Part shown: one piece after another, positions 5,681 to 28,722 of the stretch
Layout: each line of letters opens with the position of its first letter
Numbering within the stretch: the stretch's first letter is position 1
Assembly: GCA_001774685.1 (NCBI GenBank)
Contig: MFAS01000001.1
Location: forward strand, 159,557-223,556
Length of the DNA: 64,000 nucleotides
Direction: 5' to 3'
From: Candidatus Collierbacteria bacterium RIFOXYD2_FULL_45_13
GTDB taxonomy: Bacteria; Patescibacteriota; Microgenomatia; UBA1400; MFAQ01
Position numbers and translations under genes: made by a program
Notes under the pieces: generated by a model
Seen by the model: the letters and a program-made list of their open reading frames with translations, nothing else
Told to the model about the DNA's origin: nothing
The model's database searches: none

Positions 5681-6115
5681 ATGATAAAATTACAGTGCAT
5701 GAAATACCTCTTTCGACTTCTCGCCATTACTTTATTGTTTCTAGCTCTACTCTCTCCAACTACCGCAAATGCCACATCTGTGGGACCAATCAATTTTGCC
5801 TCCCCTCAAGGATCGTGCGGACAAGACTCCGTGGAAACAGCTCTGGGGTGTATCTCCACATTAGCCGATGCCGGACCAAACTCCTTCTTTGCTTCAATAA
5901 TTAAAATTGCAGTCGGCTTAGGTGGCGGACTCGCCCTGATTCTTATGCTTTACGGAGTCTTCATTGTTACCACCTCGGCTGGCATACCCGACAAGCTCAA
6001 AGAGGGTCAAGAAGTGATTACCTCAGCAATTTCCGGTCTCATCTTCATCATCCTCTCTGTTTTTCTACTAAACTTTATTGGTATCAATATTCTTAGTCTC
6101 CCTGGTTTACAATAA
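5681..6115 (+). CDS. T4SS pilin-like protein (VirB2/TrbC-like, two-TM hairpin)
   Basis: Signal-like N-terminus, then two hydrophobic helices separated by a short polar loop (GIPDKLKEGQEVITSAISGL). The size and topology match the paralogs at 8601..11236. Confidence 0.55.
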   Translation: MIKLQCMKYLFRLLAITLLFLALLSPTTANATSVGPINFASPQGSCGQDSVETALGCISTLADAGPNSFFASIIKIAVGLGGGLALILMLYGVFIVTTSAGIPDKLKEGQEVITSAISGLIFIILSVFLLNFIGINILSLPGLQ

Positions 6116-6119
6116 AATC

Positions 6120-6479
6120 ATGTTCTTCATAAAATCAGCCTACGCCGTAAATATTGGTCAAACCACATTATCAGGTTCTGGAGCTGATATTTCCAAACTT
6201 TACAATCCCGCCGAATCCAAAATCAAGATTGGTTCAGCCTTAAACAGTCTTTTCTCCAAAGACCTCATTAATTTGGTTTTTGTCATCGCCGGACTTCTCT
6301 TTTTTGCCAGTCTTGTCATGGCCGGTTGGGACTATATGATGAGTTCCGGTGACCCCAAAAAGGTAGCAGGGGCATCCACCAGATTTATCAACAGCTTGCT
6401 GGGTATCATTATGTCCCTCGTTGCCTACCTTGTAGTCCGGATAGTTCTGTCATTCTTGGGTCTTGGCAATCTCATTTAA
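6120..6479 (+). CDS. T4SS pilin-like protein (VirB2/TrbC-like)
   Basis: TM1 - loop AGWDYMMSSGDPKKVAGAS - TM2. The loop motif is shared with the 10880 ORF (AGSDPKAVASAW). The start is taken as the ATG at 6120, just after the upstream stop. Confidence 0.5.
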   Translation: MFFIKSAYAVNIGQTTLSGSGADISKLYNPAESKIKIGSALNSLFSKDLINLVFVIAGLLFFASLVMAGWDYMMSSGDPKKVAGASTRFINSLLGIIMSLVAYLVVRIVLSFLGLGNLI

Positions 6480-6505
6480 CCTGTTTTGGTATAATTTACA
6501 CCTGC

Positions 6506-7216
6506 ATGGCCACCCTACCAAAACACATTGCAATTATGATGGACGGTAATCGCCGCTGGGCACGTACCAAGGGCTTAGACCCTGTAAAAGGTCACGAATA
6601 CGCCGCCAATCACACTATAGAACCGCTGATTGAAAAATGTGCTGATCTGGGCATACCTTATGTCACCTTTTGGGCCTTTTCAACCGAAAACTGGAAACGG
6701 GAGGAAAAAGAGGTCCAAGGCATCCTAGAGATATTCCGACTTGCCTTTGGAGCCCTTGCCCTTCGCTTTATCAGCAAAGGAGCCAAATTGCATATTCTTG
6801 GAGATATGAGTCGATTTCCAAAGGATATCGTCAACAAATCACTTGAGATGATTGCGAAGTCTTCAAAAAATAACAAGATCACGGTCTCCTTTGCCCTCAA
6901 CTATGGAGGTCGTGACGAGATTGTCCGGGCCGTTAAAAAAATAGTTGCTGAAAAAATTCCCGTTAACCAAATCAATGAAGAAGCTGTCTCGACCCACCTC
7001 GATACTGCTGGTATGCCCGATCCGGATCTTGTCATCCGCACCGGCGGAGAACGACGTACCTCAGGCTATCTCCCCTGGCAATCTGTTTACTCCGAACTAT
7101 ATTTCACTCCCATTCTATTTCCCGACTTCACTCCCGACCAACTCATGGAAGCTATTAACGACTTCTCCCAAAGAGATCGCCGATTCGGCGGGAATTCCAC
7201 CCCAAAGACGAAATAA
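6506..7216 (+). CDS. uppS: undecaprenyl-diphosphate synthase (isoprenyl transferase)
   Basis: HIAIMMDGNRRWARTKGL ... NYGGRDEIV ... RTGGERRTSGYLPWQSVYSELYF are canonical UppS motifs. An extended -10 TGGTATAAT lies 10 nt upstream of the ATG. Confidence 0.9.
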   Translation: MATLPKHIAIMMDGNRRWARTKGLDPVKGHEYAANHTIEPLIEKCADLGIPYVTFWAFSTENWKREEKEVQGILEIFRLAFGALALRFISKGAKLHILGDMSRFPKDIVNKSLEMIAKSSKNNKITVSFALNYGGRDEIVRAVKKIVAEKIPVNQINEEAVSTHLDTAGMPDPDLVIRTGGERRTSGYLPWQSVYSELYFTPILFPDFTPDQLMEAINDFSQRDRRFGGNSTPKTK

Positions 7217-7417
7217 GATTTCATCGATAGCTTCCTGAGCAAAACCTTTCTTTTCAAATCTTTCACGGATCTGATAATAATCTCCAACCAATGGAATAGA
7301 CCCCCCAGGATATTTAAATACCGTCATGTCTGAGTCTTTTAATGTTTTTTCTTCTCCGTCGAATCTCATCCTTGTCGGTTGTTCACGCCAGTGTCTTGGT
7401 ACTTCCATAAAATTCAT
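7115..7417 (-). CDS. hypothetical small protein (100 aa); 3' end overlaps uppS
   Basis: ORF in the convergent gap between uppS and the polyprenyl synthase gene. No domain recognised. It may be shorter or spurious. Confidence 0.2.
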   Translation of the reverse strand: MNFMEVPRHWREQPTRMRFDGEEKTLKDSDMTVFKYPGGSIPLVGDYYQIRERFEKKGFAQEAIDEILFRLWGGIPAESAISLGEVVNSFHELVGSEVGK

Positions 7418-7462
7418 CCTAAAACACCATTTCTCTCAAACACTCTCACAATTTGTCACCAC

Positions 7463-8611
7463 CTATACCTCCCTCTCCACCATATACCTCGCAATCCCCT
7501 CGAGGTAATCGATCGCTTCTTCATTTAACCCCTTACCTCTCAAAGAAGCCGCCGTATCCGCGGCTTTGGCCGCATATTTTCTGGCTACATTTACGGAATA
7601 GGTATGTGCCCCGCTTTCTCTGATCGCCAGTTTTGCCGCCTCTATATCGCCATCCTCCGCCATGAGTTTTCCCCAAACTTTTAACAAGGCCTCCTTTTGG
7701 TTTTCTGTTCCCATCTCCATAACTTTCACAACGAGGAGTGTCACTTTGCCTTGCAATAGATCCGAGTTGGCGGATTTTCCGATTTTTTCTTCGTTGCCAT
7801 AGACACCTAGTACATCATCCTGCAGTTGAAAGGCTATCCCGCCGTCCACCGAATACTTACTTAGTATTTCTAAGATATCTTCCGGCAAACCAGCCAGCAA
7901 ACCGCCAACCATCAAGGGGTTTTCGTATGTATAGATTGCTGTTTTGGCTCTATGCAAGCTCATCACCTTTTCTTCCGTTATCTCTCCTATTTTTGACAAA
8001 CTCACATCGTACGCTTGTCCAAAGGCCGTATTGGTAATTCCTCTCAACACTTGTTTCATTATTCTTTGAATCTTTTCTCTGTCGGAACTACACTCTAACA
8101 ATCTTTCAAATCCTAAGCACAAAATAGCATCCCCGACATTCACGGCCATCGTGTCTCCATAATGAGCATCTCCTTCGCCAAAAAACTCTTGGGTTGTGGG
8201 TCTCCCCCTCCTTATTTTGTCTCCATCCATAAAGTCATCGTGCATTAAAAGAGCCGTGTGCACCAGCTCCACCGCTTCCGCCGCTCTCCACACCCCCTCC
8301 ATATTTTCGAATTTTTGATTTTTTGATTTTTTGAGTTTTTTCCCCAGCCGATATCCATAAATCACAAAGGCTGACCTTGCCCTTTTTGCCGATCTCAAGT
8401 TGTGTTCCTTGCTGTGACACAATATTTTGTGTACCAGTTTCTTCTGTGTCGGATTAAAACCAAAATTTTTCTCAATTTCCTCATCCCAATATTTATTCAA
8501 TCTCAAATCCATTTCTTTAGCCAATTCCATCAACCTTGCTTTCGCCCACTCTCCTAGCTTGTTTGTTACCATGTGTCCAATTTTACTGTAAAATATTCGT
8601 ATGGTTATCAA
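7463..8611 (-). CDS. polyprenyl (farnesyl/geranylgeranyl) diphosphate synthase
   Basis: First Asp-rich motif LLMHDDFMDGDKIRRGRPT and second motif FQLQDDVLGV. The N-terminal region contains a KKLKKSKNQKF stretch encoded by the TTTTTGA repeat. Confidence 0.85.
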   Translation of the reverse strand: MITIRIFYSKIGHMVTNKLGEWAKARLMELAKEMDLRLNKYWDEEIEKNFGFNPTQKKLVHKILCHSKEHNLRSAKRARSAFVIYGYRLGKKLKKSKNQKFENMEGVWRAAEAVELVHTALLMHDDFMDGDKIRRGRPTTQEFFGEGDAHYGDTMAVNVGDAILCLGFERLLECSSDREKIQRIMKQVLRGITNTAFGQAYDVSLSKIGEITEEKVMSLHRAKTAIYTYENPLMVGGLLAGLPEDILEILSKYSVDGGIAFQLQDDVLGVYGNEEKIGKSANSDLLQGKVTLLVVKVMEMGTENQKEALLKVWGKLMAEDGDIEAAKLAIRESGAHTYSVNVARKYAAKAADTAASLRGKGLNEEAIDYLEGIARYMVEREV

Positions 8612-8921
8612 AACCTCTCTTGCCGCAGAATCACTGGAGAACCTCTATGCTCCAGCCAAAGCCTTGAGCGGGGGTAGTGGGGCCACTCTCGCCAAACTCA
8701 TCAATCCTCTGATATACAACGTACTTATTATCTCCGGCCTGATTGCCTTTATTGTCATCATCATCGCTGGCTTCAACTATGTTTCGGCAGGTGGTGACAA
8801 GGGCAAAATTGAACAAGCACAAAACATGCTAAACTATTCAATAATAGGCCTGATATTAGTCGTCCTCGCCTTTTTAATTACTCGGGTCATTGGAGCGATC
8901 TTCGGCTTTAAATTCTTTTAA
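8601..8921 (+). CDS. T4SS pilin-like protein (VirB2/TrbC-like), paralog
   Basis: TM1 (LIISGLIAFIVIIIAGFNYV) - loop SAGGDKGKIEQAQN - TM2. The GGDK loop motif is shared by the tandem paralogs. Confidence 0.6.
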   Translation: MVIKTSLAAESLENLYAPAKALSGGSGATLAKLINPLIYNVLIISGLIAFIVIIIAGFNYVSAGGDKGKIEQAQNMLNYSIIGLILVVLAFLITRVIGAIFGFKFF

Positions 8922-8926
8922 CAAAA

Positions 8927-9286
8927 ATGAACATCCTCAACCAACTTATCAATAGTGCTTATGCCACCGATGTCATTGGCACCATTGATTTACCCGCCGG
9001 AATCCCCAAAGAAACCAGCCAGACCACCGACATTATCTCGGCCCTTATTCGTTTTATCGTTGTTGTGGGCGGAGTTTTTGCCCTTTGGCAATTACTGTCC
9101 GGGGGTTTTCAATTTATCAGCTCCGGCGGAGACAAAGGTAAGTTGGCCGAAGCTCAAAATAAAATTACCATGAGTCTGGTCGGCCTAGTCATCATCGCCG
9201 CCAGTTTCATCATCATCGCCATTATCAGCAAGGTTCTTTTTGATGATTTCGGAGCCATCCTCGCCCCCAAATTACAATCCATCTGA
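8927..9286 (+). CDS. T4SS pilin-like protein, paralog
   Basis: Loop FISSGGDKGKLAEAQNKIT between two TM helices. Confidence 0.6.
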   Translation: MNILNQLINSAYATDVIGTIDLPAGIPKETSQTTDIISALIRFIVVVGGVFALWQLLSGGFQFISSGGDKGKLAEAQNKITMSLVGLVIIAASFIIIAIISKVLFDDFGAILAPKLQSI

Positions 9287-9287
9287 T

Positions 9288-9653
9288 ATGAACAGATTCA
9301 TCCCTACCATACACGCCGCCGACATACCTCTTGGATCAGAAGTCGGTGGAGTAGGCCCTTTTCAAACAGCCATCAGTGGAGGAGTACAGGCCGGACTTGG
9401 TAATTTGCTCTCTAATCTTATTACCACCATGACCGTCATCGGAGGTCTAGCCTTTGTTGTCTATTTCTCGCTTGGAGCGCTCGAATGGATTACCGCCGGT
9501 GGAGACAAAACGAAAGTCTCCGGTGCCCAAACCCAGATGACTCAGGCCGCCATCGGCTTGATCGCCATTGTCGCCTCCTACTTTATTATCGGTATCGTCG
9601 GAGCTGTACTCGGTTTTGATATTCTCAATCCGTTTGCCGCACTAAAACTCTAA
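9288..9653 (+). CDS. T4SS pilin-like protein, paralog
   Basis: Loop WITAGGDKTKVSGAQTQMT between two TM helices. The start is taken as the ATG at 9288, right after the upstream TGA. Confidence 0.6.
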   Translation: MNRFIPTIHAADIPLGSEVGGVGPFQTAISGGVQAGLGNLLSNLITTMTVIGGLAFVVYFSLGALEWITAGGDKTKVSGAQTQMTQAAIGLIAIVASYFIIGIVGAVLGFDILNPFAALKL

Positions 9654-9659
9654 ATATTT

Positions 9660-10010
9660 ATGTCTATCACAATCATCCGCCCCGCCCACGCTGTCAACGA
9701 AATTGTTAACAGAGCCCTTTCTCCCAATGTCCCTCAAGATCCCGGTGGCGGTTTGGCTTTTTATATAGCCAGTCTCTGGCAAACAGTTGTCACCGTCGGA
9801 GGAATTGCCTTTATCATCTATCTAGTCTGGGGCGGTATCGAGTATCTCACCTCCGGTGGGGACAAGGCCAAAATTGATGACGCCCAGAAAAAAATCACCA
9901 GTTCGGTTATCGGTGTCGGTATTTTAGTTGCCTCCTACGCCATTACCTATTTCATTCAAGCTGTCTTCAAGATTAATATTCTCAAACCTGTTTTTCCCAG
10001 CGCACTATGA
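9660..10010 (+). CDS. T4SS pilin-like protein, paralog
   Basis: Loop YLTSGGDKAKIDDAQKKIT between two TM helices. Confidence 0.6.
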   Translation: MSITIIRPAHAVNEIVNRALSPNVPQDPGGGLAFYIASLWQTVVTVGGIAFIIYLVWGGIEYLTSGGDKAKIDDAQKKITSSVIGVGILVASYAITYFIQAVFKINILKPVFPSAL

Positions 10011-10366
10011 TATTCCAAAAACTTTCTCAGGTATTTGCCGCCGATATCGAGCTCCCTATTGGAGAAATGGCCACCAAAAATAACTTTTTCGGCTATACCT
10101 GTATCGGACATCTCGTCAGCAATCTCGTCGCCGCCGCTTTTATCGTTGCCGGTATCGCTTTCTTTGTCTATCTCGTCATGGGAGGCATCCAGTGGCTTAC
10201 TTCCGGCGGAGACAAGGGAAAAATTGAGTCATCCCAGAAGATGATCTCTGCCGCCCTGATCGGCCTAGCCATCGTCGCTTCTAGCTATGCAGTCTATATG
10301 ATTGTTCTCACCTTCTTCGGTATCAATCTAGACGCCCTCTGTACCGACAATCCTCTCGGTAATTGA
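10007..10366 (+). CDS. T4SS pilin-like protein, paralog
   Basis: Loop WLTSGGDKGKIESSQKMIS between two TM helices. There is a 4-nt overlap with the upstream gene. Confidence 0.6.
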   Translation: MIFQKLSQVFAADIELPIGEMATKNNFFGYTCIGHLVSNLVAAAFIVAGIAFFVYLVMGGIQWLTSGGDKGKIESSQKMISAALIGLAIVASSYAVYMIVLTFFGINLDALCTDNPLGN

Positions 10367-10428
10367 CAATTAAAAAATCATATATAATAGTCAGTAATAC
10401 GCATAACAATTATTAAAAAATAAAAAAC

Positions 10429-10770
10429 ATGTCTTTAATTCCTCAAGCATTGGCAGCAGCTGGCACCATCGGAGTTCCCCAACCGACAGGTATGAAGATC
10501 ACCGATATTGGCGTCCTTATCAGCCGTGTTATTTCTCTAGCTTTCATCGTTGCCGGTATTCTCACTTTCGCTTTTCTCGTCATGGGAGGCATTGAGTGGC
10601 TTACTTCCGGAGGAGACAAGGGCAAAACCGAACAGGCCAGAAATCGTATCACCGCCGCGGTTGTCGGTCTTGCGATCGTGGCTGCTTCCTGGGCTTTAAT
10701 GAAACTAATCGCCTATTTCTTTGGCGTTGATGTCTTCGAGGGAAACATCAACATCCCCAAACCCTACTAA
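10429..10770 (+). CDS. T4SS pilin-like protein, paralog
   Basis: Loop WLTSGGDKGKTEQARNRIT between two TM helices. Confidence 0.6.
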   Translation: MSLIPQALAAAGTIGVPQPTGMKITDIGVLISRVISLAFIVAGILTFAFLVMGGIEWLTSGGDKGKTEQARNRITAAVVGLAIVAASWALMKLIAYFFGVDVFEGNINIPKPY

Positions 10771-10798
10771 GAATTTAGTATTAGAAAAAAACAAATTA

Positions 10799-10818
10799 CC
10801 GCCGTCAGGCGGTTTTTT
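10799..10818 (+). terminator. rho-independent terminator after the pilin array
   Basis: ccgcc-gtca-ggcgg followed by TTTTTT. Confidence 0.6.
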
Positions 10819-10830
10819 GTATCCTTTTTT

Positions 10831-10861
10831 AACTTGAGTTTTTGAGTTCTTGAGTTTTTTT
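10831..10861. repeat. tandem TTGAGTTYT repeat (3 units), intergenic copy
   Basis: aacTTGAGTTTTTGAGTTCTTGAGTTTTTTT. Related copies lie at 8311..8342, 33907..33925, 44524..44561 and 53105..53131. Confidence 0.5.
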
Positions 10862-10879
10862 ACGATATAATTATTCTCA

Positions 10880-11236
10880 ATGACCCTTTCTTTCATTCCC
10901 CAAGCATACGCCGCCAGCAATTGGTCTGGAGAATGCGTTGGTCAAAATGTCGCTGGTGTGGACGCCACAGATGTGGCTTCTATCCAAGGAATTACCTGTT
11001 TGCTAAGAAACGTTCTTTCCCCTATACCAGCCCTCATTGCTCTTGCCGCCGTGGGCATCATTATCATGGCCGGCATTCGTCTAACTACTGCCGGATCGGA
11101 TCCCAAAGCAGTAGCTAGTGCTTGGAACATGTTCACTTGGGCCGTCATTGGTCTTATCCTGCTCTCCGCCGTGTGGCTGGCTCTTGTCCTTATCGAAAAC
11201 TTCACTGGTGCCAAGGTTACCCAATTCGGCATTTAA
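10880..11236 (+). CDS. T4SS pilin-like protein (divergent paralog)
   Basis: Signal-like N-terminus, then TM1 - loop TTAGSDPKAVASAWN - TM2. Confidence 0.5.
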   Translation: MTLSFIPQAYAASNWSGECVGQNVAGVDATDVASIQGITCLLRNVLSPIPALIALAAVGIIIMAGIRLTTAGSDPKAVASAWNMFTWAVIGLILLSAVWLALVLIENFTGAKVTQFGI

Positions 11237-11266
11237 CCTTTTCCCTTACCAAGTATAATTATTTCA

Positions 11267-14200
11267 GTGAAGAAACTTGTCTTATTATTGTTGTGTCTTT
11301 TTGTCTTTTATCTTTTTGGTGTCGACTCCATTTCCGCCGCCACTCCCACCCCAACCCCTACAGCCAACACCAGTCATACTCCCTCTGTTGATGCCGGTGT
11401 CGACGGCCCAAATCCCGCTCCACCAATTGGCATCCCTTGTGGAAAGACTGTTTGTTTGGAAGGTGAGGTTTGTACCAAGTTTCCTGGAGATGTTGATGAG
11501 CACTGTGTCCCGGATCCCATTCCCACCAACGCTGCCGGTGAAAAATTCAACCCTGTCCTTCCACCCCAATGTCCCGCAGGCACAGGGGTCTTCCCTCCCA
11601 ACAGTGTTTGTTGGAATGAAATCATCAACACCCAAACCTCTATCAGAGAGTACGACCACACCTGTATTTACGAACCCGTTGCCGAATACTCAGACGATCG
11701 CTGGTTAAACCGAGGCCCTCAACCTTTTAACCAGTGTGGTATCGGCGACTCCGGCCCGGGTGGCCCACCGGCACCGGGTGGCGACACCTACGAATGCGCC
11801 GTCAACATGCTTGTTTATACCGATGTCCGTGACGCGGAACTGGGTGGCTATGCGCCCAGCACCCTTGCCGAAGCTAGTTACTCGGCCGACTTCTTGGCAC
11901 AGAACTATCTCTACAATTCACTATTTGGACGACCTATGAATCTTTCCAGTAGTTACGACAAAAAGAACGCTGCTCTGAACAACGGCTATCCAACTCGGGA
12001 AGCATATCGAACTTATTGGCGTTTACTTCCGGCCGCCAACCAAGCCAATCTGCGCTCTTTTGTTATGAATTCTGCCCACGATGATCAAATGGATAATTTT
12101 AGTTTTAATTACATTGATTCCAATGGCATGAAAAAGTCCACCAGTTTCAAGAAACTTTTTGATGCTCTCAGCAAACAAGTAATCCTGTTTTGGCATTTTC
12201 CCTTTATCCGTATTGGCTGTCTCACTCAATATCCCGTCTGTCCGGAATACGCTCAGGCTATTCGGGAACTAAAACCGGTCTTTCAGGATATTAGAAATCT
12301 TGTTCGTGATCTCAATCTAGGTCCACTCGCTACGATTCCTATTGATATATACGAAGGCGCTATCTCCGCTTTTGGAGGAGATTTGGATGGACCATACGCC
12401 GCTTTTGTCCCTCTAGATTTTAATAGTATGCGCGGCTACATCCTCAAGAAAAAAGATACCAAAGAAGAATCCTATTATGAGACTTATTACGACGAACTCG
12501 TCGACGAGTACAATTCCGGCCGTTATGGCAGAAACAAACCTCTTTTAACCAATATTTCTTATGAACACCTTCCCTATCTTAGTGCCATCTACCAAGGACT
12601 TCTCTCCCCCAAGTTCGGTATGATCCCTGCTCTTCAACCCCAAGCAATCATCGATAAATGGGCTACAGAAAGTGGCATCTCGGATTATCGTGCCGGCAAC
12701 ACCCCTCTCACCATGCCGGAAGTCAGAATCGCTCAAAAGAACTTTCTTCAACGAATAGTCGACGAAGCAGTCGCAATCATTTCTGACCCACTTGGCTGGA
12801 TTGCCACCAACATTCTGGGGATTGGTACTCCGGAAGATTACAAAAAAGTTGGCTATACCGAGAACGGAACCGATAACCCCAGAGACAGGATCAGATCTGT
12901 CTACGACAATCCGAGGGGTTGCCCCTTACCCACTAGTTATCACCTCCTAGCCCCTAAAACAGTACCCATCTCCTTAGACGATCATCACCAGGTCATCACT
13001 ATTGAAGGCAAACGAGTCCAATGGGCCTACGACCCCATCTGTCAGCCACTCGAGCAACAAAAATGTGATAAAAATGGGCAGAACTGCACGACCGAATATA
13101 TCGACTGCCCCGTCAGCCCTGAAACTTATATTGAGGGTGGTATGTGCTGTACCAGACATTGGCAGGTCTCCGGTCGGGAACATGGCAAAGCACTTGATGT
13201 CTTAAACAATCCCAAACAAACCGATATTCGAGAAGTGGTCGCTGCTAATAATAGTTATTCCTTCTACAAAACAATGCTCCCGGCAGGGGCGTCCAAAATT
13301 ACCGACGCTGCTATCGACGCTTATGAAGCTTTTCACTTTGTCTCTTATAGCGACAGGGGGGGGACAGTAGAAGCCATCGGCCCAAACGACGGTGGTAGTT
13401 CATCAAAAGTATTAAACCCCGCCGAACCGGTCAACCGCATTGACAACTTCTCTCAAGATACCATACACATGTTACAAAACTGCTGGACCGTTCCCGAGAC
13501 TCTTCAAAACTCTCCTCGCTGCAAAATCGAGTTCCCTCCAGAGGCTACATCATCCAGCTCTCTTTGTGGCGGAGAAGCTTTCAAAAAAATTGACCCGAAT
13601 CCCGCCGCCCCCAGTGCCAAGGCCACTGACTTCTTTGTCTCCACCATTGAACCCACTCTCTCTGATGAAGTAATTTCGGCTTATGCCGAAGCCGAAAAAC
13701 AAACTGGCGTTCCTTGTGAAGTCCTAGCCGGTATTCACTTCGAAGAAGGTGATAATGATCCTAAAAAGGATCTCCAAAGTGGTGCCCCTTTAAACGGTCG
13801 GTCTTTAACCGAGTCTGCCGTCCAAGCCGCAGAAGAGCTCAAAGGCAAGGCCGGTGGCGATATTACATCCATGGACCAGCTCGCCATGGCCCTCTCCTAC
13901 TACAACGGTGGTGGTAATGCGAACTGTCAAGCCAGTAGTAGTTACAACTGCCCTTCCGCCACTTCTGACCAGTGTGGAATGACGGCTGCCTGTAGTACTA
14001 ATACTAGTGCTTGCACCTGCACCGGTACCGCCGAGGCCGGAAGCTGTCGCGCAGCATGTACTGCCGGCTTCCCCTATCAATTCAGTTATCCTTACTGTCC
14101 GCCCTCGAACATCGGCTACGACGACCCTTATGTCGTTAACTGGTGGCAGTCTCCTCAGCACGACGAAATGTACCTTCTTTATATGTACGACTGCACTCAG

Positions 14201-14275: not shown

Positions 14276-14280
14276 ATTAT

Positions 14281-14850: not shown

Positions 14851-14886
14851 TTACCCATGAGTGTTCATTTTCCTGTATAATTTTTC

Positions 14887-19537: not shown

Positions 19538-19576
19538 TATTTTTGAAAAATATATCTAATCTCAGCCTCAATTATA

Positions 19577-21553: not shown

Positions 21554-21682
21554 CTCACTCTCATCTTAACATTTTCACCCTTCAGACATATACAATATTT
21601 TTCCCAAATCTCACCAGACACGATATACTTAACTAGACTCATCGAACCAGCAACCAACAACTTAAGAACTTCTCACCAAGAC

Positions 21683-22600: not shown

Positions 22601-22602
22601 AC

Positions 22603-23253
22603 ATGCCTGAAAACATCAAGTCATCGACCCAGGAAAGTCTCGATATTTACACTATCAAAAATCATCTTGTCTTTTTAAAAGACGGCTCTTGTTCGCTTGT
22701 CCTAAAAACTACAGCTATCAACTTCAATCTGCTTTCCGAAGAAGAGCAAGATGCCACTATCTATGGCTATGCCGGCTTACTGAACTCACTCTCTTTCTCT
22801 ATACAAATTCTTATCCGATCTCAACGAAAAAATATTTCCGATTATATTAATTTGTTAGACAATCGTATTCAGATTACTCCATCTCAAAAAGTCAAAGAGC
22901 AACTTCTTTCCTACCGTCAATTTGTCAAATCTCTCGTCAAAGAAAACCGTGTTCTGGAGAAAAAGTTTTATGTCATCGTTTCCTTTTCGGCTATCGAATT
23001 GGGTGTCACCAAATCAACCTTTAATCCCATGGCCAAAACCACCCAAAAACCTCCTTTTGACATCTCCTACATTGAAGAAAAAGCTTCGATGGCTCTCTAT
23101 CCTCGGCGCGATCACATTATTCGTCAGTTCGCTAGAATCGGACTCAAGGCCAGCCAGCTCACCACAAGCGAATTGGTGACTTTGTTTTACACTATTTATA
23201 ATCAAGGCAGTGTCACTCAGGCCATCACCCCGGGCAGATCCAACGCCTCCTAA
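22603..23253 (+). CDS. VirB4 N-terminal domain encoded as a separate ORF (split VirB4, part 1)
   Basis: LDIYTIKNHLVFLKDGSCSLVLKTTAINFNLLSEEEQDATIYGYAGLLNSLSFSIQILIRSQRK follows the N-terminal pattern of VirB4/TrbE proteins: (I/L)..hhhLkDGS....h.h.Gh.F.l...E......Y..LL. Recalled from Agrobacterium VirB4 and TrbE. Confidence 0.5.
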   Translation: MPENIKSSTQESLDIYTIKNHLVFLKDGSCSLVLKTTAINFNLLSEEEQDATIYGYAGLLNSLSFSIQILIRSQRKNISDYINLLDNRIQITPSQKVKEQLLSYRQFVKSLVKENRVLEKKFYVIVSFSAIELGVTKSTFNPMAKTTQKPPFDISYIEEKASMALYPRRDHIIRQFARIGLKASQLTTSELVTLFYTIYNQGSVTQAITPGRSNAS

Positions 23254-23282
23254 AACCTGTCGTCTTCAGTTATACTTAATTC

Positions 23283-25175
23283 ATGGCTTTGAACCTTTTT
23301 TCTCTTGGCAAAAAACAAAGCGTACCGCCTGCTACTGCACCTGTCTCTACACCGGTTCCTAACGTTACATCAACAAACTCTTCTTCCGTCGATCAAAAAT
23401 CTGCCGCCTCCAGTCAATCCATCCAAGATATTATTGCCCCCTCTGCCGTTGAAGTCGATTTTTCTCATATCAAAATCGACGATGTCTATATCCGCACCCT
23501 CTTCGTCACCGGCTACCCTCGCTATGTCTCCGCCAACTGGTTATCCCCCCTGGTCAACTTCAATCACTCTTTAGACATTTCCATGTTTGTCTACCCTTCA
23601 GATTCCAAGGATACCTTAGAGAGTCTCAGGAGACGCATCGCCGAGATGGAAGCGGAAATTAATACCGATATCGAACGAGGCCGCATCCCCCGTGCCGCCA
23701 CCGAAGCGGGCTTGGAAGACGCTAAAGTTCTCCAATCACAGCTGGTCAAGGGAGCCGAAAGATTTTTCCAGTTCTCTCTATATATCAGCATCTCCGCTGA
23801 TTCCGAAAAAGAACTAAACACCTCCACCGCTCAGATTCAGTCCATGTTGGCTTCTCTCTTGATTATCAGCAAAATTGCTTCCCTCTCTATGGAAGATGCT
23901 TTCAAAAGCACCCTTCCTTACTGCAAGGACAAGCTGATGTTAACGAGAAATATGGACACGACGGCTCTCTCTACTACTTTTCCTTTTACTTCCTCAGAAC
24001 TTTCTGATAACCAAGGGATTCTTTACGGCGTCAATGCCCACAACGACTCCCTGGTTATCTTCGACCGTTTCTCTCTGGAAAATGCCAACATGCTGATACT
24101 GGCCACTTCCGGTGCCGGCAAGTCATACGCTGTCAAGCTCGAGATCCTTCGCTCTCTGATGTTCGACTGTCAAGTCATTATTCTCGATCCTGAAAACGAG
24201 TATGAGATGGTCACTAAGTCTGTCGGCGGCAACTATCTCTCTTTTTCTACCAGCTCTCAACACAAAATTAATCCTTTCCAGATAGCCCGCCCCAAAGAAA
24301 GTACCGAAGATGAAATGGGTTATAAATATCTTTTTCTCATGTCTCTCCTCAAGATCATGATTGGCCAGATGGACCCTATCGAAGAGGCTACTATGAATAG
24401 GGCTCTCGTCCTGACCTATCGTCAAAAAGGCATTACCGAAGACCCAGCCACCCATACTCTCGAACCACCTCGCATGGAAGATCTTTATCGCTCTCTTATT
24501 GGTATGGAAGAATCAGTCAGTAAAACATTGGCCGCCAGACTCGAGCGGTTTGTCATGGGTGCCGTCAAGGGAATTTTCGACCAGCAAAGCAATATTGACA
24601 TCAACGCTCCCATCACCGTTTTTACTCTTCGAGATACCGCCGATGAGATTCGGCCCATCATCATGTTTATGATTCTGGACTTTGTCTGGAATGAAGTGCG
24701 AAAAAATCTTCGCAAAAGAATGCTTGTCGTCGATGAGGCCTGGTACCTCATGCGTTACGAAGACTCTGCCAAAATTCTTCAGGGCTTCGTTAAACGCGCA
24801 CGTAAGTATTACTTCGGTGTATCTATCATTTCTCAGAACGTTGATGACTTTCTTGGTTCGGCTTATGGTAAAGCCATTATCACGAACTCCGCCCTCAAAC
24901 TACTCCTCAAACAGTCATCCGCTGCCATCAACCAGATCTCCGAAGTTTTCTATCTTTCTCAAGGCGAAAAACAACTATTACTTTCGGCCGGAGTCGGAGA
25001 GGGTATTTTCTTTGCCGGTATGAACCACGTCGCCATCAAAATTATTTCCTCCGCCGATGAACATGCCTTAGCCACCAGTAAGCCTGCAGAAATTTTGGAA
25101 AGACAGAAACAAGAAAAAGCCCAAGCAGCCGCCGAAGCCGCTTCCCAAATACAACCACAGCTAAGTAATTCCTAA
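23283..25175 (+). CDS. virB4: VirB4/TrbE/PrgJ-family T4SS ATPase (split VirB4, part 2)
   Basis: DIIAPSAVEVDFSHIKIDDVYIRTLFVTGYPRYVSANWLSPLV...DISMFVYPSD matches the Gram-positive VirB4 (Orf16/TcpF/PrgJ) middle-domain pattern. Walker A is ILATSGAGKSYAVK and Walker B is RMLVVDEAWYLM. The start codon is directly preceded by TATACTTAATTC. Confidence 0.8.
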   Translation: MALNLFSLGKKQSVPPATAPVSTPVPNVTSTNSSSVDQKSAASSQSIQDIIAPSAVEVDFSHIKIDDVYIRTLFVTGYPRYVSANWLSPLVNFNHSLDISMFVYPSDSKDTLESLRRRIAEMEAEINTDIERGRIPRAATEAGLEDAKVLQSQLVKGAERFFQFSLYISISADSEKELNTSTAQIQSMLASLLIISKIASLSMEDAFKSTLPYCKDKLMLTRNMDTTALSTTFPFTSSELSDNQGILYGVNAHNDSLVIFDRFSLENANMLILATSGAGKSYAVKLEILRSLMFDCQVIILDPENEYEMVTKSVGGNYLSFSTSSQHKINPFQIARPKESTEDEMGYKYLFLMSLLKIMIGQMDPIEEATMNRALVLTYRQKGITEDPATHTLEPPRMEDLYRSLIGMEESVSKTLAARLERFVMGAVKGIFDQQSNIDINAPITVFTLRDTADEIRPIIMFMILDFVWNEVRKNLRKRMLVVDEAWYLMRYEDSAKILQGFVKRARKYYFGVSIISQNVDDFLGSAYGKAIITNSALKLLLKQSSAAINQISEVFYLSQGEKQLLLSAGVGEGIFFAGMNHVAIKIISSADEHALATSKPAEILERQKQEKAQAAAEAASQIQPQLSNS

Positions 25176-25177
25176 CC

Positions 25178-27709
25178 ATGGCCAATCACGAACAGGACAT
25201 CTATGATCTTGGACAGGTTCAAAAATATTTTCCAAAAAAATTAGAGGATCTTTCAGAACAAGAAAGAGCAGAGGCCTTACGACTTTTCAGTATAGGAGCT
25301 GGGTTTTATAACCAGTTTTTTCGAAAAGGTTCCGGTCACAAAGTAACCCCCTATACTTTTCAAAAAGAAGCCTCACCGGACGAAATTCAGCAAATCATAA
25401 ATTATTTGTCGAAAGAAGAGGAGGAGGAAACCAAAAAAACCAAAACTCCGGCCAAAGAAGAGTCGTCGGTTCCACCGGAGATCGAAGGTCTTGTCGAAGA
25501 ATACCGTCAAAATCAAGAACGTCTAAACGAAGAAGAGGTCAAATCCAGTGGTCAACGCACCGTCGCCGAACAAGTCAAAATTGCTCTCTCCCACTCCAAA
25601 ATCCGTGAGCAAATTATGGCCAATCGCCGAGAACGTGAAGCCGCAGGTGAAAAGTTTCAAGACCCAAACGAAGTAATCGTTAATCTGGGAGATCCAAAAA
25701 GCCAGAGTATCAACGCTGTTCTTTCCACCACCAAAAAAGCCATTGACTCTATCGCTTACACGTATCCTGGTTTTTCTTCTCTCTCAACTTCAGTTCAAAG
25801 ACAGGTCATCAACGATGCTGTTGACCTAAGTTTAGCTGGTATTGATGATTTAGACGTCGCTATTCAAACCGCCTCCATCCAACTAGGTGTTGATAGGATT
25901 CCCTCTAGCTACATTTCTGAGGTAGCTCGTGAGCTAAGTGATATAGAGAAAGATTCCGAAGAGCTGGAAGAAAGTCTTTCACAAAACGAATATGCCATTG
26001 ACAGTTTAAAAGCTAAAACCACACTATCTGACTCGGAACAACAGCAGTTAAATAAACTTCTTAAAGAAAATAACATTCTCACCTCCGGACTTAACAAGGC
26101 TTCTACCCGTTTCATCGATTTTGTCGATTCACAGAATGAAAGATATGGTCAATATCTTGCCGAAAAAAGGGACCACCTCAGAACCAACCCGGATCTGGAT
26201 GAACTTACCCTTGCCGCAAACACCAAAAGAGACAATCTTCACGAAAATCTTCTCAAAAACGGAGTTACTCCTAGAGGTTTTTCCGATCTGGACAAAATTG
26301 CCGGTTTGGTCACCGTCATTCAAAAAGACATTCCTGGCCTTCATCAATATGCCAGTTACGAAGGAGCTCAAGCCGCCGCCATCATTGGAGGAGGTCAGGG
26401 CCAGGCAATACTGGCCTATTCCAAAGGAGTCACCGGTGGAGTACTACGCCAAGCGGAAAAATATGCCGCTGCTAATCCCAATTCTGCTACAGCCAAATTT
26501 CTCGCCAACAATACTAAGGTTTTTCAAGCCGCCAGACGCTCCATTCGTGAAATAGAAAATTCCAAACTTGGAAAAGATGTTCTTCAGGCAGTCAGTAAGG
26601 GCAATCAAATCATCGGTATCGTCACCAATCCAGTCGGCGCTCTCAAACAATGGGCCGGTCAAAAAGCCGGCGAACAAATAGCTAAGAGGTTGGTTGAAAG
26701 ATTCGGGAGTGAGGCTCTCAAGAATGCCGCCAATCTGTTGTTGAAGGAGGGTCTCAAAGATGGAGTCAAAAAGCTAGCCTCTCAAGCTCTATCCAAAGTG
26801 GCTATCAAAGTTGCTACATGGGCGGCTTTAAAGTTAGGAATCAGTCTTACTGCCGAATCTTTGAACGCTATCATGCCCGGGCTAGGAGTTATTGTCGACA
26901 TTGTTGTTCAAGCCGTAATATATATCGCCGAAAAAACTATTGGTGCTGGCTATCAAGCCATGCAAAGTACGGCTAGAGAAATCTGGGGAGAGGAACTCAA
27001 ACCCCGCGATTTACTCGCTCCTCTGGCAGCATTGGGTGGACTCGCGGTTGCTCTATTTGGTACATTGAAGGCTGCTCAAAGAACCGCCCAAATAGCTGTA
27101 GTATCCGCCGCAGGTATCGTTATAGGATCTGTCAGTATTCTGTTAATTTATCTTTCTCTCGCCTTCCTAATTGCCCCCATGCTTTCCGCTTTGGTGCAAC
27201 TTGATAGTTTGGAGAAGGTTAAGTATTCCGAATATGCCGCGCCAGTCACCGCTACCAACTGTTCCAACGTACCTTGGCCCTTTTCAGACACTCATCCAAT
27301 TACACAAGGCCCTCGTCAAACAACTACCAGTTGTACCCACGCCGGCGACATCGCAGAATCTGCTGATTTCAGTGTCACTGTCGGAACTCCTATATTAAGC
27401 ATTTTCTCCGGAAAGATCGACTTCGCCGGATGGAGCGATGATGGCTATGGAAACAATGTTAAAATGACGGCAACCACCGACACGGGCACAAGCTTTACTG
27501 TCATTTACGGTCACTTCTCCAAAGTTTCAGTGACTACAGGTAGTACTGTTCAAGTTGGAGCTCAGTTGGGCTTATCGGGAAGCACTGGCTACAGCACAGG
27601 CCCTCATCTCCATCTCGGCTATCGTGGTATCGAATACAACTCGTGTCCTGCTGGCAATTTTAGAATTAACGAAAACTGTTGCACAACCGATACTTGCAAT
27701 CAGCCATAA
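25178..27709 (+). CDS. membrane protein with C-terminal M23 (LytM-type) peptidase domain; candidate T4SS cell-wall hydrolase (VirB1 analogue)
   Basis: C-terminus HAGDIAESADFSVTVGTPILSIFSGKIDFAGW...GYSTGPHLHLGYRGIEY carries the M23 HxxxD and HxH motifs. Two or three TM helices precede it around residues 600-660. The N-terminal region of about 600 aa is cytoplasmic and coiled-coil rich. Confidence 0.7.
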   Translation: MANHEQDIYDLGQVQKYFPKKLEDLSEQERAEALRLFSIGAGFYNQFFRKGSGHKVTPYTFQKEASPDEIQQIINYLSKEEEEETKKTKTPAKEESSVPPEIEGLVEEYRQNQERLNEEEVKSSGQRTVAEQVKIALSHSKIREQIMANRREREAAGEKFQDPNEVIVNLGDPKSQSINAVLSTTKKAIDSIAYTYPGFSSLSTSVQRQVINDAVDLSLAGIDDLDVAIQTASIQLGVDRIPSSYISEVARELSDIEKDSEELEESLSQNEYAIDSLKAKTTLSDSEQQQLNKLLKENNILTSGLNKASTRFIDFVDSQNERYGQYLAEKRDHLRTNPDLDELTLAANTKRDNLHENLLKNGVTPRGFSDLDKIAGLVTVIQKDIPGLHQYASYEGAQAAAIIGGGQGQAILAYSKGVTGGVLRQAEKYAAANPNSATAKFLANNTKVFQAARRSIREIENSKLGKDVLQAVSKGNQIIGIVTNPVGALKQWAGQKAGEQIAKRLVERFGSEALKNAANLLLKEGLKDGVKKLASQALSKVAIKVATWAALKLGISLTAESLNAIMPGLGVIVDIVVQAVIYIAEKTIGAGYQAMQSTAREIWGEELKPRDLLAPLAALGGLAVALFGTLKAAQRTAQIAVVSAAGIVIGSVSILLIYLSLAFLIAPMLSALVQLDSLEKVKYSEYAAPVTATNCSNVPWPFSDTHPITQGPRQTTTSCTHAGDIAESADFSVTVGTPILSIFSGKIDFAGWSDDGYGNNVKMTATTDTGTSFTVIYGHFSKVSVTTGSTVQVGAQLGLSGSTGYSTGPHLHLGYRGIEYNSCPAGNFRINENCCTTDTCNQP

Positions 27710-27714
27710 CGATT

Positions 27715-28722
27715 ATGATAAAAATAAATACCCATCTTTCCAAAAAGACGATCCTATTCGGAACTGCTATCCTCTTGCCTCTCGTAATTCTCACAAGTTA
27801 TTACTTGGCCTCCCGAACATCAAAAAACCAAGCAGCAACCATCAATCCTGAACCTGTTTCCACCAAAGAATCCTCTCCTTCTGCCGATCAAAATCCTTTC
27901 CAGAACAAATCCACCAAGTTAGAAGTAAATTGGGAAAATGCCAAAATCAATTTTCAAAAAGGGAACTACCCTACGTACGAGACAACACCTATTATCAATG
28001 ATGTAAATGTCGACTCGTTTGCCTCAATTCTCGGTTTTTCCGGCACAGATAGAAAGACATTACCAGACAATGATGCAATCTGGAAAAAAGGAAAGGAAAC
28101 ACTCCTTTATATTTCATCGGAGAACACTTTGGATTATCAAAATGAAAAGGTCTATGTTGGACCTTCCAGATTCAACGAAGCCAACCTTATCAACCGGGCC
28201 AAACAATATGCCTCCAATCTGTTCTCTCATACGGAGCTAGTACCTTCTCCTGTTACCTATTTCGGGGATAATGCCTATGAGCCAAATATTACCAATGTCA
28301 ACAACTCACTCTTAGCCCAAATCAACTTTAACCAAACTATAGGCGGCCATCTTGTAATACCGGCCAATCTAAAATCAGAGTACTTCATTTCGTTGTTTAT
28401 TACCCCTGATCTAACTATTCAAACATTCAAAAGCTCTCCCGGCTATCAATCGGCCAGAATTGCTTCAGGGGCTTCACTGGCAGATTTTGATAAGCTTAAG
28501 ACTATTCCCGCTAACTATTTTAGAAAAATAACAAACATGCCATTAGAAATAGAATCTATCATTACTTTCTCCAAAAAACTATATTATTCTGTCTCCTCTG
28601 TTGACATTGCTTATACAATTATTGGCTCCAAGGCCGTACCTGTTTACTATATCGACGGCACTGTTTACGGAGATAACATAAAAGTCAGTGACCATGTTGT
28701 TTACTTGGCGCCCTTGAACTAG
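27715..28722 (+). CDS. membrane-anchored extracytoplasmic hypothetical protein (335 aa)
   Basis: N-terminal TM anchor (ILFGTAILLPLVILTSYYLA). No known domain. Confidence 0.5.
   Translation: MIKINTHLSKKTILFGTAILLPLVILTSYYLASRTSKNQAATINPEPVSTKESSPSADQNPFQNKSTKLEVNWENAKINFQKGNYPTYETTPIINDVNVDSFASILGFSGTDRKTLPDNDAIWKKGKETLLYISSENTLDYQNEKVYVGPSRFNEANLINRAKQYASNLFSHTELVPSPVTYFGDNAYEPNITNVNNSLLAQINFNQTIGGHLVIPANLKSEYFISLFITPDLTIQTFKSSPGYQSARIASGASLADFDKLKTIPANYFRKITNMPLEIESIITFSKKLYYSVSSVDIAYTIIGSKAVPVYYIDGTVYGDNIKVSDHVVYLAPLN

Follow-up and report, generated by a model that had tools for sequence, protein, structure and literature searches.

A probable Patescibacteria-clade type IV secretion system with nine pilin genes beside dnaN and dnaA in Candidatus Collierbacteria

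[quoted passage not shown] It was analysed within a 64-kb stretch of DNA, here called the window. Part of the same best explanation is that the locus is inherited vertically and that its ancestor is an MPF-FATA (monoderm) conjugation apparatus, the DNA-processing parts of which have been lost. A chromosomal, non-conjugative T4SS with a pilin gene array is already described for the ultra-small Patescibacteria (CPR). As the Collierbacteria genome was included in a published survey, the locus is correctly recognised but not new: both assemblies that carry it are present in the genome table of the survey (PMC12102498), the last column of which reads 'Yes' for them (presumably the VirB4 call).

The first-pass annotation of this DNA had proposed a T4SS-like, monoderm-type apparatus in a CPR bacterium. 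The organism is indeed a member of this group, and every component ORF that had been claimed is present where it had been placed.

The components of the locus

The features are, in the order of their coordinates:

5681-6115, +, pilin 1, 144 aa, classical 31-aa signal peptide, two TM helices; PF18895 19.5 bits, E 1e-3; pilin HMM
6078-6479, +, pilin 2; PF18895 27.7 bits; pilin HMM
6506-7216, +, undecaprenyl-diphosphate synthase-like ORF (uppS), 236 aa
7115-7417, -, 100-aa ORF
7463-8611, -, polyprenyl synthase-like ORF, 382 aa
8601-8921, +, pilin 3; PF18895 41.2 bits
8927-9286, +, pilin 4; PF18895 27.0 bits
9240-9653, +, pilin 5; PF18895 24.5 bits (sub-cut-off); pilin HMM
9660-10010, +, pilin 6; PF18895 31.2 bits
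10007-10366, +, pilin 7; PF18895 23.7 bits (sub-cut-off); pilin HMM
10429-10770, +, pilin 8; PF18895 37.8 bits
10880-11236, +, pilin 9; PF18895 39.4 bits
11267-14275, +, 1002-aa secreted protein, 33 Cys
14281-14850, +, 189-aa protein, one N-terminal TM segment
14887-16674, +, VirB6-like polytopic membrane protein, 593-595 aa, signal-like N-terminus, ~190-aa outer domain
16718-19537, -, 939-aa acidic cytoplasmic protein, no TM segment
19577-21553, -, 658-aa charged cytoplasmic protein, no TM segment
21527-22600, +, PrgI/VirB3-like membrane protein, Pro/Ser/Thr-rich linker, C-terminal beta-rich domain
22603-23253, +, TrsD-family protein, 216 aa, homologous to the VirB4 N-terminal domain; NCBIfam TrsD 25 bits
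23283-25175, +, VirB4 ATPase of the monoderm CD1110 / MPF-FATA type, 630 aa
25178-27709, +, 843-aa protein, VirB1 analogue, ~560-aa cytoplasmic coiled-coil, 3 TM segments, external M23 peptidase domain
27679-28722, +, 335-347-aa protein, one N-terminal TM segment
28719-29831, -, dnaN (public gene call, DNA_pol3_beta domain)
30137-30217, four DnaA-box-like sites between dnaN and dnaA
30218-31672, -, dnaA (public gene call, Bac_DnaA domain)
50554-53985, +, VirD4/TraD-like P-loop ATPase fused to NUDIX, 1143 aa, 25 kb from virB4

The nine small proteins had been read as two-helix pilins of the VirB2 type. This reading holds: each has two hydrophobic helices, and all nine match Pfam PF18895 (T4SS_pilin), six of them above its gathering cut-off of 26.6 bits, while the ORFs at 5681, 9240 and 10007 stay below it. 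A search of the whole window with an HMM made from these nine recovers nine ORFs and no others. The genes form two groups, two at 5681-6479 and seven at 8601-11236, separated by uppS and the polyprenyl synthase. The latter two are named from a reading of the sequence alone; the 100-aa ORF near them has no Pfam match, and none of the genes from 6506 to 8611 has a T4SS match. Because ORFs overlap, later starts are suggested for pilin 2 (~6120) and pilin 5 (~9288).

Pilin 8 is a candidate for the major pilin. It is the best-conserved paralogue, with a median identity of 77% versus 57-64% for pilins 6, 7 and 9 in relatives whose VirB4 is ~83% identical, and a terminator-like hairpin (10798-10813) follows its gene. 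The best promoter-like site (10842-10871) lies 5' of pilin 9. The scans for promoters and terminators showed no enrichment over shuffled sequence, and the operon picture is therefore weak.

VirB4 scores 359 bits with NCBIfam conju_CD1110 (cut-off 325 bits), and further matches P-loop_TraG (92.6 bits) and CagE_TrbE_VirB (23.3 bits). Both Walker motifs are present: ATSGAGKS (Walker A) begins the pair at residue 274, and MLVVDE (Walker B) lies at residue 480. Its nearest plasmid relatives, annotated as CD1110 family, are 30-36% identical and belong to Actinobacteria and Firmicutes, which, together with the family score, bears out the assignment to a monoderm-type T4SS. That VirB4 is split is true in so far as the two ORFs cover separate parts of the CD1110 profile (positions 13-141 for the 216-aa ORF, 179-733 for the 630-aa ORF). 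The small ORF, however, belongs to the TrsD family; the arrangement is thus old and typical of the clade, and not a recent split. The same ORF matches VirB4_plasma with 28 bits and carries a precomputed PF26593 TraC-like assignment.

The PrgI/VirB3-like protein is confirmed by PF12666 (36.9 bits, cut-off 27); its likely start at 21683 yields 305 aa, as in the public gene call. In the membrane-anchored M23 hydrolase, PF01551 is matched with 70 bits at residues 729-816, three hydrophobic segments precede it (565-665), and the motifs HAGD and HLH are found at residues 721 and 810. The 335-347-aa protein occupies the position of PrgL in pCF10. It has no family match and is detectable in 14 related loci with 21-28% identity; the AF2 model of the 347-aa form has a pLDDT of 42.6.

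The polytopic protein with at least seven TM segments is probably VirB6/TrbL-like, as had been proposed. A VirB6-like fold was detected by structure, and the family comprises at least 322 proteins. The survey describes VirB6 homologues as scarce in Microgenomatia and blames sequence divergence (PMC12102498); here, the fold was found by structure. The adjoining 189-aa protein has no family or PDB match and is, by position only, a candidate for a VirB8-like component: in Southlakia, the NTF2-like SEML1_0012 adjoins the VirB6-like gene in the same setting.

The description of the 1002-aa protein as Cys-rich and secreted agrees with its 33 Cys and a signal-like hydrophobic segment at the N-terminus. 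Its position is kept in Collierbacteria, and it has no match in Pfam, NCBIfam or PHROG. Its C-terminal ~220 aa may form a lysozyme-like (GH73-like) domain with an invariant Glu827. The best PDB match of the domain profile is the GH73 N-acetylglucosaminidase 5wqw_A, with a sub-threshold E of 0.1 and an alignment that spans the catalytic motif; PF01832 is matched by one of the 13 members, again sub-threshold (E 0.15).

The 939-aa protein on the opposite strand evolves fast, keeps its position and is restricted to the lineage. Searches of Pfam, NCBIfam, PHROG and PDB yielded no match; BLASTP links unite 13 proteins, from 12 of 14 related loci and the window, and just 31 representative clusters were found in 1.84e9 proteins. 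The 658-aa protein, without a family match, has six members by BLASTP links and occurs in a subset of Collierbacteria. Both could be lineage-specific accessory factors or substrates. These two and the Cys-rich 1002-aa protein are the only lineage-specific parts of the locus.

Comparison with known systems

The remainder is familiar. According to the survey (Quinonero-Coronel 2025, PMC12102498), the Patescibacteria VirB4 clade is nested in MPF-FATA; TrsD adjoins VirB4, PrgI is present, VirB2 arrays comprise 2-11 genes, hydrolases contain M23, relaxases are missing, and dnaA, dnaN, rnpA and rpmH are nearby. Every feature listed there is found at the Collierbacteria locus. The first-pass annotation had called the composition unusual; by the same source, the pilin arrays, the TrsD-VirB4 pairing, the M23 hydrolases, the missing relaxase and the proximity of dnaA are typical of Patescibacteria, and the arrays are especially common in Microgenomatia.

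Gene order and content also match the T4SS of Southlakia epibionticum ML1 (SEML1_0006-0019, Saccharimonadia; PMC10633639), the agreement in order extending over SEML1_0002-0019. Common to both are an array of PF18895 pilins, a VirB6-like protein, a small anchored protein, a large protein, PrgI, a protein in the TrsD position, VirB4, a large protein with a terminal peptidoglycan peptidase and, a few genes away, dnaN and dnaA; both are devoid of a relaxase and of an adjacent coupling protein. The systems differ in detail. The pilins of Southlakia number six and are encoded on the opposite strand; here there are nine, which fall into two groups and lie on the same strand. The VirB6-like proteins measure 1088 aa in Southlakia and 595 aa here. 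A separate lysozyme/CHAP protein (SEML1_0006) and the NTF2-like protein belong to Southlakia, neither being demonstrated here, whereas the 939-aa, 658-aa and 33-Cys proteins have no counterpart among the Southlakia locus annotations covered. Nearly all genes of SEML1_0002-0019 are essential for epibiotic growth according to Tn-seq (Wang 2023, PMC10633639). Essentiality is shown in Southlakia only.

The Gram-positive conjugative systems of the MPF-FATA class (pCF10 prgH-prgL, CTn2 CD1110, pGO1 trsC-trsE) have a VirB4 of the same family, which is likewise accompanied by PrgI/VirB3 and, in pGO1, by TrsD. In these systems as at this locus, a cell-wall hydrolase with several domains is encoded downstream of VirB4, and the outer-membrane core VirB7/9/10 is lacking. 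The succession of VirB6, VirB3, VirB4, hydrolase and small anchored protein we take to mirror pCF10 prgH-I-J-K-L. In contrast to these systems, the locus is chromosomal and vertically inherited, not part of a plasmid or ICE, and its VirB4 is only 30-36% identical to those of plasmids; it has no relaxase, adjacent coupling protein or surface adhesin such as PrgB. Yet it has VirB2-type pilins, which are absent from Gram-positive systems (PMC12857230; PMC12102498).

Several divergent VirB2 paralogues also occur in the VirB/D4 systems (MPF-T) of Bartonella, Anaplasma and Rickettsia, where, according to PMC12102498, they are thought to vary the host-facing surface. The VirB6 channel protein there has the same fold. 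Those systems, however, are diderm, with a VirB7/9/10 core, VirB11, VirD4 and another VirB4 class, and none of these parts is found here.

Possible function

The components themselves are demonstrated here; how they would work together is inferred from knowledge of the families. A VirB4 hexamer and TrsD would dock at the membrane via PrgI/VirB3, and the VirB6-like protein would serve both as the channel through the membrane and as the base on which the pilus is assembled. The two-helix pilins would be extracted from the membrane by VirB4 and polymerised to form a short pilus or a conduit. Its major subunit would probably be pilin 8, and the other, divergent paralogues would be minor subunits or variants suited to different hosts. 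The external M23 domain would open the peptidoglycan for the structure, possibly assisted by the C-terminus of the 1002-aa protein. The assembled apparatus would establish contact with a host bacterium and allow proteins or other molecules to pass over the interface; conjugation would not be its task. A role in host interaction had been proposed before, and the literature reads the essential Southlakia system likewise (PMC10633639).

It is unlikely that the work of VirB4 and VirB6 ends with a VirB2-type filament that holds the cell to its host, without any translocation. The nine pilin genes are a large share of the locus, evolution is fastest in surface-exposed parts, neither an adjacent coupling protein nor a recognisable effector was found, and VirB4 is the sole ATPase needed for pilus biogenesis in Gram-negative systems (PMC12102498). 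Adhesion of Patescibacteria, however, is already served by type IV pili (PMC10633639; PMC12102498), and a mere filament leaves the two fast-evolving cytoplasmic proteins unexplained. Moreover, the VirD4-like ATPase 25 kb away hints that substrates are handled. This protein matches TrwB_AAD_bind (22.7 bits), TraG-D_C (22) and NUDIX (38.7) in Pfam and, far under the cut-offs, SXT_TraD (31.9) and conju_CD1115 (25.3) in NCBIfam; its Walker A is GKSGTGKS at residue 350. By these weak similarities it is possibly a distant coupling protein, and a coupling-protein-dependent mode is therefore conceivable even at 25 kb.

Slightly less probable again is a machine that works inward, as archaeal Ced and Helicobacter ComB do, and takes up DNA, nucleotides or other molecules of the host. 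Patescibacteria depend on their hosts for nucleotides, amino acids and lipids, none of which they can make (PMC10633639), and a T4SS review speculates on pilus-mediated uptake (PMC12857230). With neither a relaxase nor an adjacent coupling protein, the usual export targeting is missing. The match of VirB4 to the DNA-import ATPase CedB, however, is weak (61 bits, cut-off 700) and much lower than that to CD1110, and no uptake-specific component was identified at the locus. In Southlakia, deletion of comEC abolished competence but not viability (PMC12857230); the essential role of the T4SS is thus independent of ComEC-dependent transformation. Export of proteins or other molecules at the host interface remains the preferred reading.

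Chromosomal setting and inheritance

The locus had been placed next to oriC. Gene context and the four DnaA-box-like sites agree with this; the GC skew does not support it, since its sign is constant from position 1 to 73 kb. Beyond the locus, the window contains a phage-like Bro-N gene (33001-33837) and a tmRNA gene (673-1086), a common integration site.

A synteny comparison shows the block prgI-trsD-virB4-M23-dnaN-dnaA conserved, in this order, in dozens of related genomes. VirB4 identity tracks that of DnaA (rho 0.96) and DnaN (rho 0.92). GC content is even throughout the window (0.40-0.50). As had been stated, relaxase, integrase and VirB7/9/10 are without a Pfam match in any large ORF of the 64 kb; flanking tRNAs and DNA matches to plasmids or phages were not found either. 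The conserved order, the co-divergence and the absence of mobility genes, tRNA flank and plasmid matches uphold the view of a fixed chromosomal, non-conjugative system. That the locus sits in an ICE or another recently acquired DNA-transferring element, with relaxase, coupling protein and integrase outside the block, is very improbable and largely refuted: the homology to conjugative VirB4s (of the 4,712 plasmids with a match, 3,325 are predicted conjugative), the VirD4-like ATPase, the Bro-N gene and the tmRNA gene would fit it, but against it stand all these observations, the flanking housekeeping genes and the rarity of relaxases, which PMC12102498 reports in just 103 of 3,035 genomes of Patescibacteria, seldom close to virB4.

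What the locus adds

The missing GC-skew switch at dnaA and the lineage-specific proteins are undescribed in the sections of PMC12102498 covered. Beyond the literature covered, the locus contributes four points. The skew is constant; the 1002-aa protein may carry a lysozyme-like domain at its C-terminus; the opposite strand encodes the 939- and 658-aa cytoplasmic proteins, which evolve fast and are restricted to the lineage; and structure points to a divergent VirB6 in Microgenomatia.

Core of the secretion locus

Every gene named by the first-pass annotation is found where that annotation had placed it, as judged by ORF listing and translation. The T4SS block and its chromosomal neighbours comprise the following features.

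5681-11236: nine small pilins (pilin 1 to pilin 9)
11267-14275 (+): 1002-aa protein
14281-14850 (+): 189-aa protein
14887-16674 (+): 595-aa polytopic protein, VirB6-like candidate
16718-19537 (-): 939-aa protein
19577-21553 (-): 658-aa protein
21527-22600 (+): PrgI/VirB3 protein
22603-23253 (+): 216-aa TrsD-family protein
23283-25175 (+): 630-aa VirB4 ATPase
25178-27709 (+): 843-aa M23 protein
27679-28722 (+): 347-aa protein
28719-29831 (-): dnaN
30218-31672 (-): dnaA

The 630-aa protein is a VirB4 ATPase, as had been proposed. It passes the cut-off of the curated NCBI profile conju_CD1110 (359 versus 325 bits; profile positions 179-733), and its Walker A (ATSGAGKS) and Walker B (MLVVDE) motifs are intact. 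By profile score and by the loci retrieved with it, it is of the monoderm (FATA/CD1110) type that marks the T4SS of the Patescibacteria clade. These loci are, by title or context, Patescibacteria MAGs in 70 out of 70 cases; the nearest plasmid VirB4s, from Actinobacteria and Firmicutes, are 30-36% identical. The gene had also been described as split. Two ORFs do cover one profile, yet the 216-aa ORF directly upstream matches NCBIfam TrsD as well as CD1110 profile positions 13-141, and the "split VirB4" is thus a TrsD and VirB4 pair. A recent split is ruled out, since the small ORF belongs to a conserved TrsD family, found next to virB4 in 66 of 73 loci.

The PrgI-like protein, encoded near virB4, scores above the cut-off of PF12666 (36.9 bits versus 27). 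The supposed peptidoglycan hydrolase indeed carries an M23 domain (70 bits), preceded by three hydrophobic segments and about 560 cytoplasmic residues; it has no signal peptide. Two other cell-wall enzymes are encoded on either side of the locus. One is a stand-alone M23 peptidase of small size (57844-58434, minus strand; 93.4 bits); the other, a SpoIID-domain protein of 580 aa (3903-5645, minus strand), contains a coiled coil and lies immediately upstream of pilin 1.

Systems of this kind have been described. In a survey of 3,035 Patescibacteria genomes (Quinonero-Coronel et al. 2025, PMC12102498), VirB4 forms a monophyletic clade that is nested within MPF-FATA, TrsD stands next to VirB4 in 1,664 cases, and PrgI is reported as well; its genome table includes both assemblies with this exact locus, marked "Yes". 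In Candidatus Southlakia epibionticum (Wang et al. 2023), Tn-seq showed the corresponding locus, six pilins included, to be essential for epibiotic growth, and its gene order, taken from the published tables, runs parallel to that of the window (PMC10633639). In a 2025 review such systems count as an accepted new branch within the T4SS superfamily (PMC12857230). The locus was correctly recognised and is already part of a published system; the finding is therefore confirmed and already known. What goes beyond the published accounts considered here concerns VirB6 in Microgenomatia, the opposite-strand proteins, a domain of the 1002-aa protein and pilin 8.

The pilin array

A VirB2-like pilin array of family PF18895 (T4SS_pilin) is a feature of the Patescibacteria-clade T4SS, and it is present here: all nine small proteins match this family, six of them above the gathering cut-off and the other three, at E values of 1e-3 to 3e-5, below it, which bears out their designation as VirB2-type pilins. 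When the 64 kb was searched with an HMM made from the nine, nine ORFs and no more came up. In each pilin a conserved loop, T-S-G-G-D-K-x-K, links two hydrophobic helices. Pairwise identities range from 22 to 49% (mean 34%); an average of about 25% is given for Patescibacteria pilin arrays in the survey (PMC12102498). The genes fall into a group of two (5681-6479) and a group of seven (8601-11236), separated by genes assigned by eye as uppS-like and polyprenyl-synthase-like.

Pilin 8 is the best-conserved paralogue and may be the major subunit. The stretch 10798-10871, directly 3' of it, holds first a GC-rich hairpin and its T-run (ACCGCCGTCAGGCGGT TTTTT) and then, ahead of pilin 9, the promoter-like site that ranks best in the region (TTGAGT-18-TATAAT). 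Given this pair of elements, pilins 3-8 may form a separate, more highly expressed unit; promoter and terminator scans gave no enrichment over shuffled sequence, and the pair is to be read as a hint only.

The pilins also begin in an unusual way. Eight of the nine (pilins 2-9, starts corrected) and their Collierbacteria orthologues have a leader of a mere 9-14 aa with the form M-x(1-6)-[LI]-[IV]-P-x-[AV]-x-A, e.g., MSLIPQALA or MTLSFIPQAYA, which is below the length of a classical Sec signal peptide. It was seen in the window at 6120-11236 and in the related loci L010, L013, L016, L017, L026, L041 and other Collierbacteria loci. Ordinary signal peptides occur in pilin 1 and in some non-Collierbacteria pilins. 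The window further encodes two YidC-family insertases (34225-34962 and 49100-49897, both plus strand; 60KD_IMP 166.7 and 51.4 bits), the second of which adjoins an SPFH/Band 7 protein (49921-50532). This pair could be relevant to the membrane insertion of two-helix pilins.

Candidates for VirB6 and VirB8

The suggested VirB6/TrbL-like nature of the 595-aa protein finds its signal in structure and none at the sequence level. Pfam matched nothing in 25 family members, the family profile matched nothing in the PDB, and the 322 database homologues are all unannotated. An AlphaFold model built from 40 sequences, however, has a membrane core (residues 200-535) at pLDDT 76-95, and in a Foldseek search against the PDB the TrwI chains ranked top, the match being not significant (E 0.14). 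The polytopic protein is thereby moderately supported as VirB6-like, and with the same moderate support it can be counted as the VirB6-like channel protein that belongs to the Patescibacteria-clade T4SS. VirB6 is scarce in Microgenomatia according to the survey (PMC12102498). The fold match would provide a concrete VirB6 candidate family in this class, where profile searches mostly failed.

As to a VirB8-like (NTF2-fold) component, profiles of the 189-aa and 347-aa families matched nothing in the PDB, and neither Pfam, run on all members of both families, nor PHROGs gave a match. A word-index search found two homologues of the 347-aa protein (and three of the 939-aa protein); its AF2 model, made from a 3-row alignment only, reached pLDDT 42.6 and is unusable. 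In its place beside the VirB6-like gene, the 189-aa protein resembles the NTF2-like SEML1_0012 of Southlakia. The survey rarely finds VirB8 outside ABY1 (PMC12102498).

Lineage-specific proteins

Between the VirB6-like gene and prgI, the opposite strand of every Collierbacteria locus examined carries a large ORF or a pair of them. The 939-aa family (13 proteins by BLASTP) occupies this slot in almost all of them, the 658-aa family (6 proteins) in a subset. Both proteins are highly charged and have no TM segment; searches of Pfam (with all family members), NCBIfam, PHROG and PDB profiles found nothing. They diverge much faster than the VirB4 ATPase: median identities are about 52% (939-aa) and 35% (658-aa) where VirB4 is about 90% identical. 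Among 1.84 billion proteins the 939-aa family makes up just 31 representative clusters. Its sole Walker-A-like string, AYLWDGKS, had no other support, and the protein was rejected as a second ATPase. That the two proteins are substrates of the T4SS appears rather unlikely; if true, a Patescibacteria T4SS would have its first candidate effectors, under host-driven evolutionary pressure.

The 1002-aa protein is constant in its position and contains 33 Cys. A single residue of its C-terminal domain is invariant: Glu827, with which a hydrophobic helix ends. The best PDB match of the domain profile is a GH73 N-acetylglucosaminidase, a weak one (E 0.1), with an alignment that covers the catalytic HE(T/S)G motif. 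Pfam, run on all family members, and PHROGs yielded no match, save that one member hits PF01832 at E 0.15. These profile alignments are no more than suggestive of a lysozyme-like domain. In Southlakia, by comparison, a lysozyme-like protein is a separate component of the T4SS locus.

Proposed mechanism and mode of inheritance

From the presence of VirB4-, VirB3-, VirB6-, VirB2- and VirB1-type protein families the following sequence can be proposed. VirB4 and TrsD would dock on PrgI and the VirB6-like channel; VirB4 would pull pilins out of the membrane and polymerise them; the M23 domain would cut the wall, where the 1002-aa protein may assist; the structure would then touch the host cell and move cargo. 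Rivals to this scheme are inward transport of host molecules and a pure adhesion pilus.

A conjugative element is essentially excluded, and a mobile element or ICE was rejected, on the grounds of conserved synteny, co-divergence of VirB4, and the lack of relaxase and integrase hits in the 64 kb and of plasmid or phage matches. Pfam found no relaxase domain in any window ORF of at least 110 aa, and no integrase or VirB7/9/10/11 among all large ORFs of the window; NCBIfam found none of the latter among the locus proteins. The first-pass annotation was thus right, by Pfam and for 64 kb, in reporting neither relaxase nor integrase nor a VirB7/B9/B10 core. The relaxase and mobile-element carriage of a conjugative T4SS are missing from the 64 kb, and the VirB7/VirB9/VirB10 core plus VirB11 of the diderm MPF-T type from locus and window alike. 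No tRNA flanks the block, and its 23 kb gave no nucleotide match to plasmid or phage collections.

A VirB4 of identical sequence is present on assemblies of Candidatus Collierbacteria as well as in many metagenomes, and a scan of species-representative genomes yielded 70 related loci. The synteny comparison across CPR genomes showed a conserved gene order. In Collierbacteria it reads pilin array, 1002-aa, (189-aa), VirB6-like, one or two large opposite-strand ORFs, prgI, trsD, virB4, M23, (347-aa), dnaN, dnaA, rnpA, yidC, jag. Loci titled Shapirobacteria, Nealsonbacteria and Paceibacterota share the prgI/trsD/virB4 core beside dnaN/dnaA. In the window dnaN directly adjoins the final gene of the locus, and in 51 of 73 loci it is no more than 10 kb from virB4. 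VirB4 identity tracks that of DnaA (rho 0.96), DnaN (rho 0.92) and YidC (rho 0.92), which indicates vertical inheritance. Conserved synteny, co-divergence with DnaA and DnaN and the lack of an integrase in the window sustain the view of a fixed chromosomal locus.

The locus itself has no VirD4/TcpA coupling protein. At 50554-53985 (plus strand), 25 kb away, we noticed a 1143-aa protein, overlooked before, in which a VirD4/TraD-like P-loop ATPase is joined to a C-terminal NUDIX domain. It has a Walker A motif, GKSGTGKS, no hydrophobic anchor was detected, its public annotation is DUF8128, and its VirD4/TraD-like matches are weak, every curated score being below cut-off.

Position relative to the origin

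The locus had been placed next to oriC. It does lie next to dnaA, and the divergent rpmH-rnpA/dnaA-dnaN arrangement counts for an origin at its edge, as do DnaA-box-like sites, four within 81 bp at 30137-30217 and two more at the dnaA 5' end. The GC skew, however, does not switch there: from position 1 up to 73 kb it remains below zero, without a sign change at the DnaA-box cluster of dnaA/dnaN. The plus strand is C-rich throughout the window (G 11,918 versus C 16,931; mean skew -0.17), with a third-position skew of -0.14 to -0.47. The latter keeps its sign irrespective of gene orientation, which implies a strand-wide mutational bias. The active origin may be away from dnaA, replication may be strongly asymmetric, or replication or assembly may be atypical; uneven replichores, rolling-circle-like patterns and misassemblies are recognised causes of atypical skew (PMC7111523). 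Caution is advised in taking proximity to dnaA alone as a proxy for proximity to the origin and for gene dosage.

Some other genes of the window deserve mention.

673-1086 (+): tmRNA of 414 nt (ARAGORN prediction); its tag peptide, of 32 residues and ending in YAFA, is unusually long
33001-33837 (+): Bro-N/anti-repressor-like gene inserted between rnpA and yidD/yidC, in just 8 of 73 related loci; matches the phage family phrog_15286 over its full length (E 3e-82)
36791-37228 (+): RNase H/RVT_3 protein, 145 aa, downstream of yidC-jag
37463-40186 (+): DUF4012 protein, 907 aa, likewise downstream of yidC-jag

Biological meaning

The importance of the locus is that of the published system, not of its rediscovery here. 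Of all T4SSs, that of the Patescibacteria was the first whose carrier bacterium was shown to need it for survival, and it is probably central to the life of these ultra-small bacteria on other bacteria. For Microgenomatia, a class without a cultured model, the present analysis offers modest leads: a VirB6 candidate, a lysozyme-like protein that may partner the M23 hydrolase, one conserved pilin as candidate major subunit, and two fast-evolving cytoplasmic proteins as candidate substrates.
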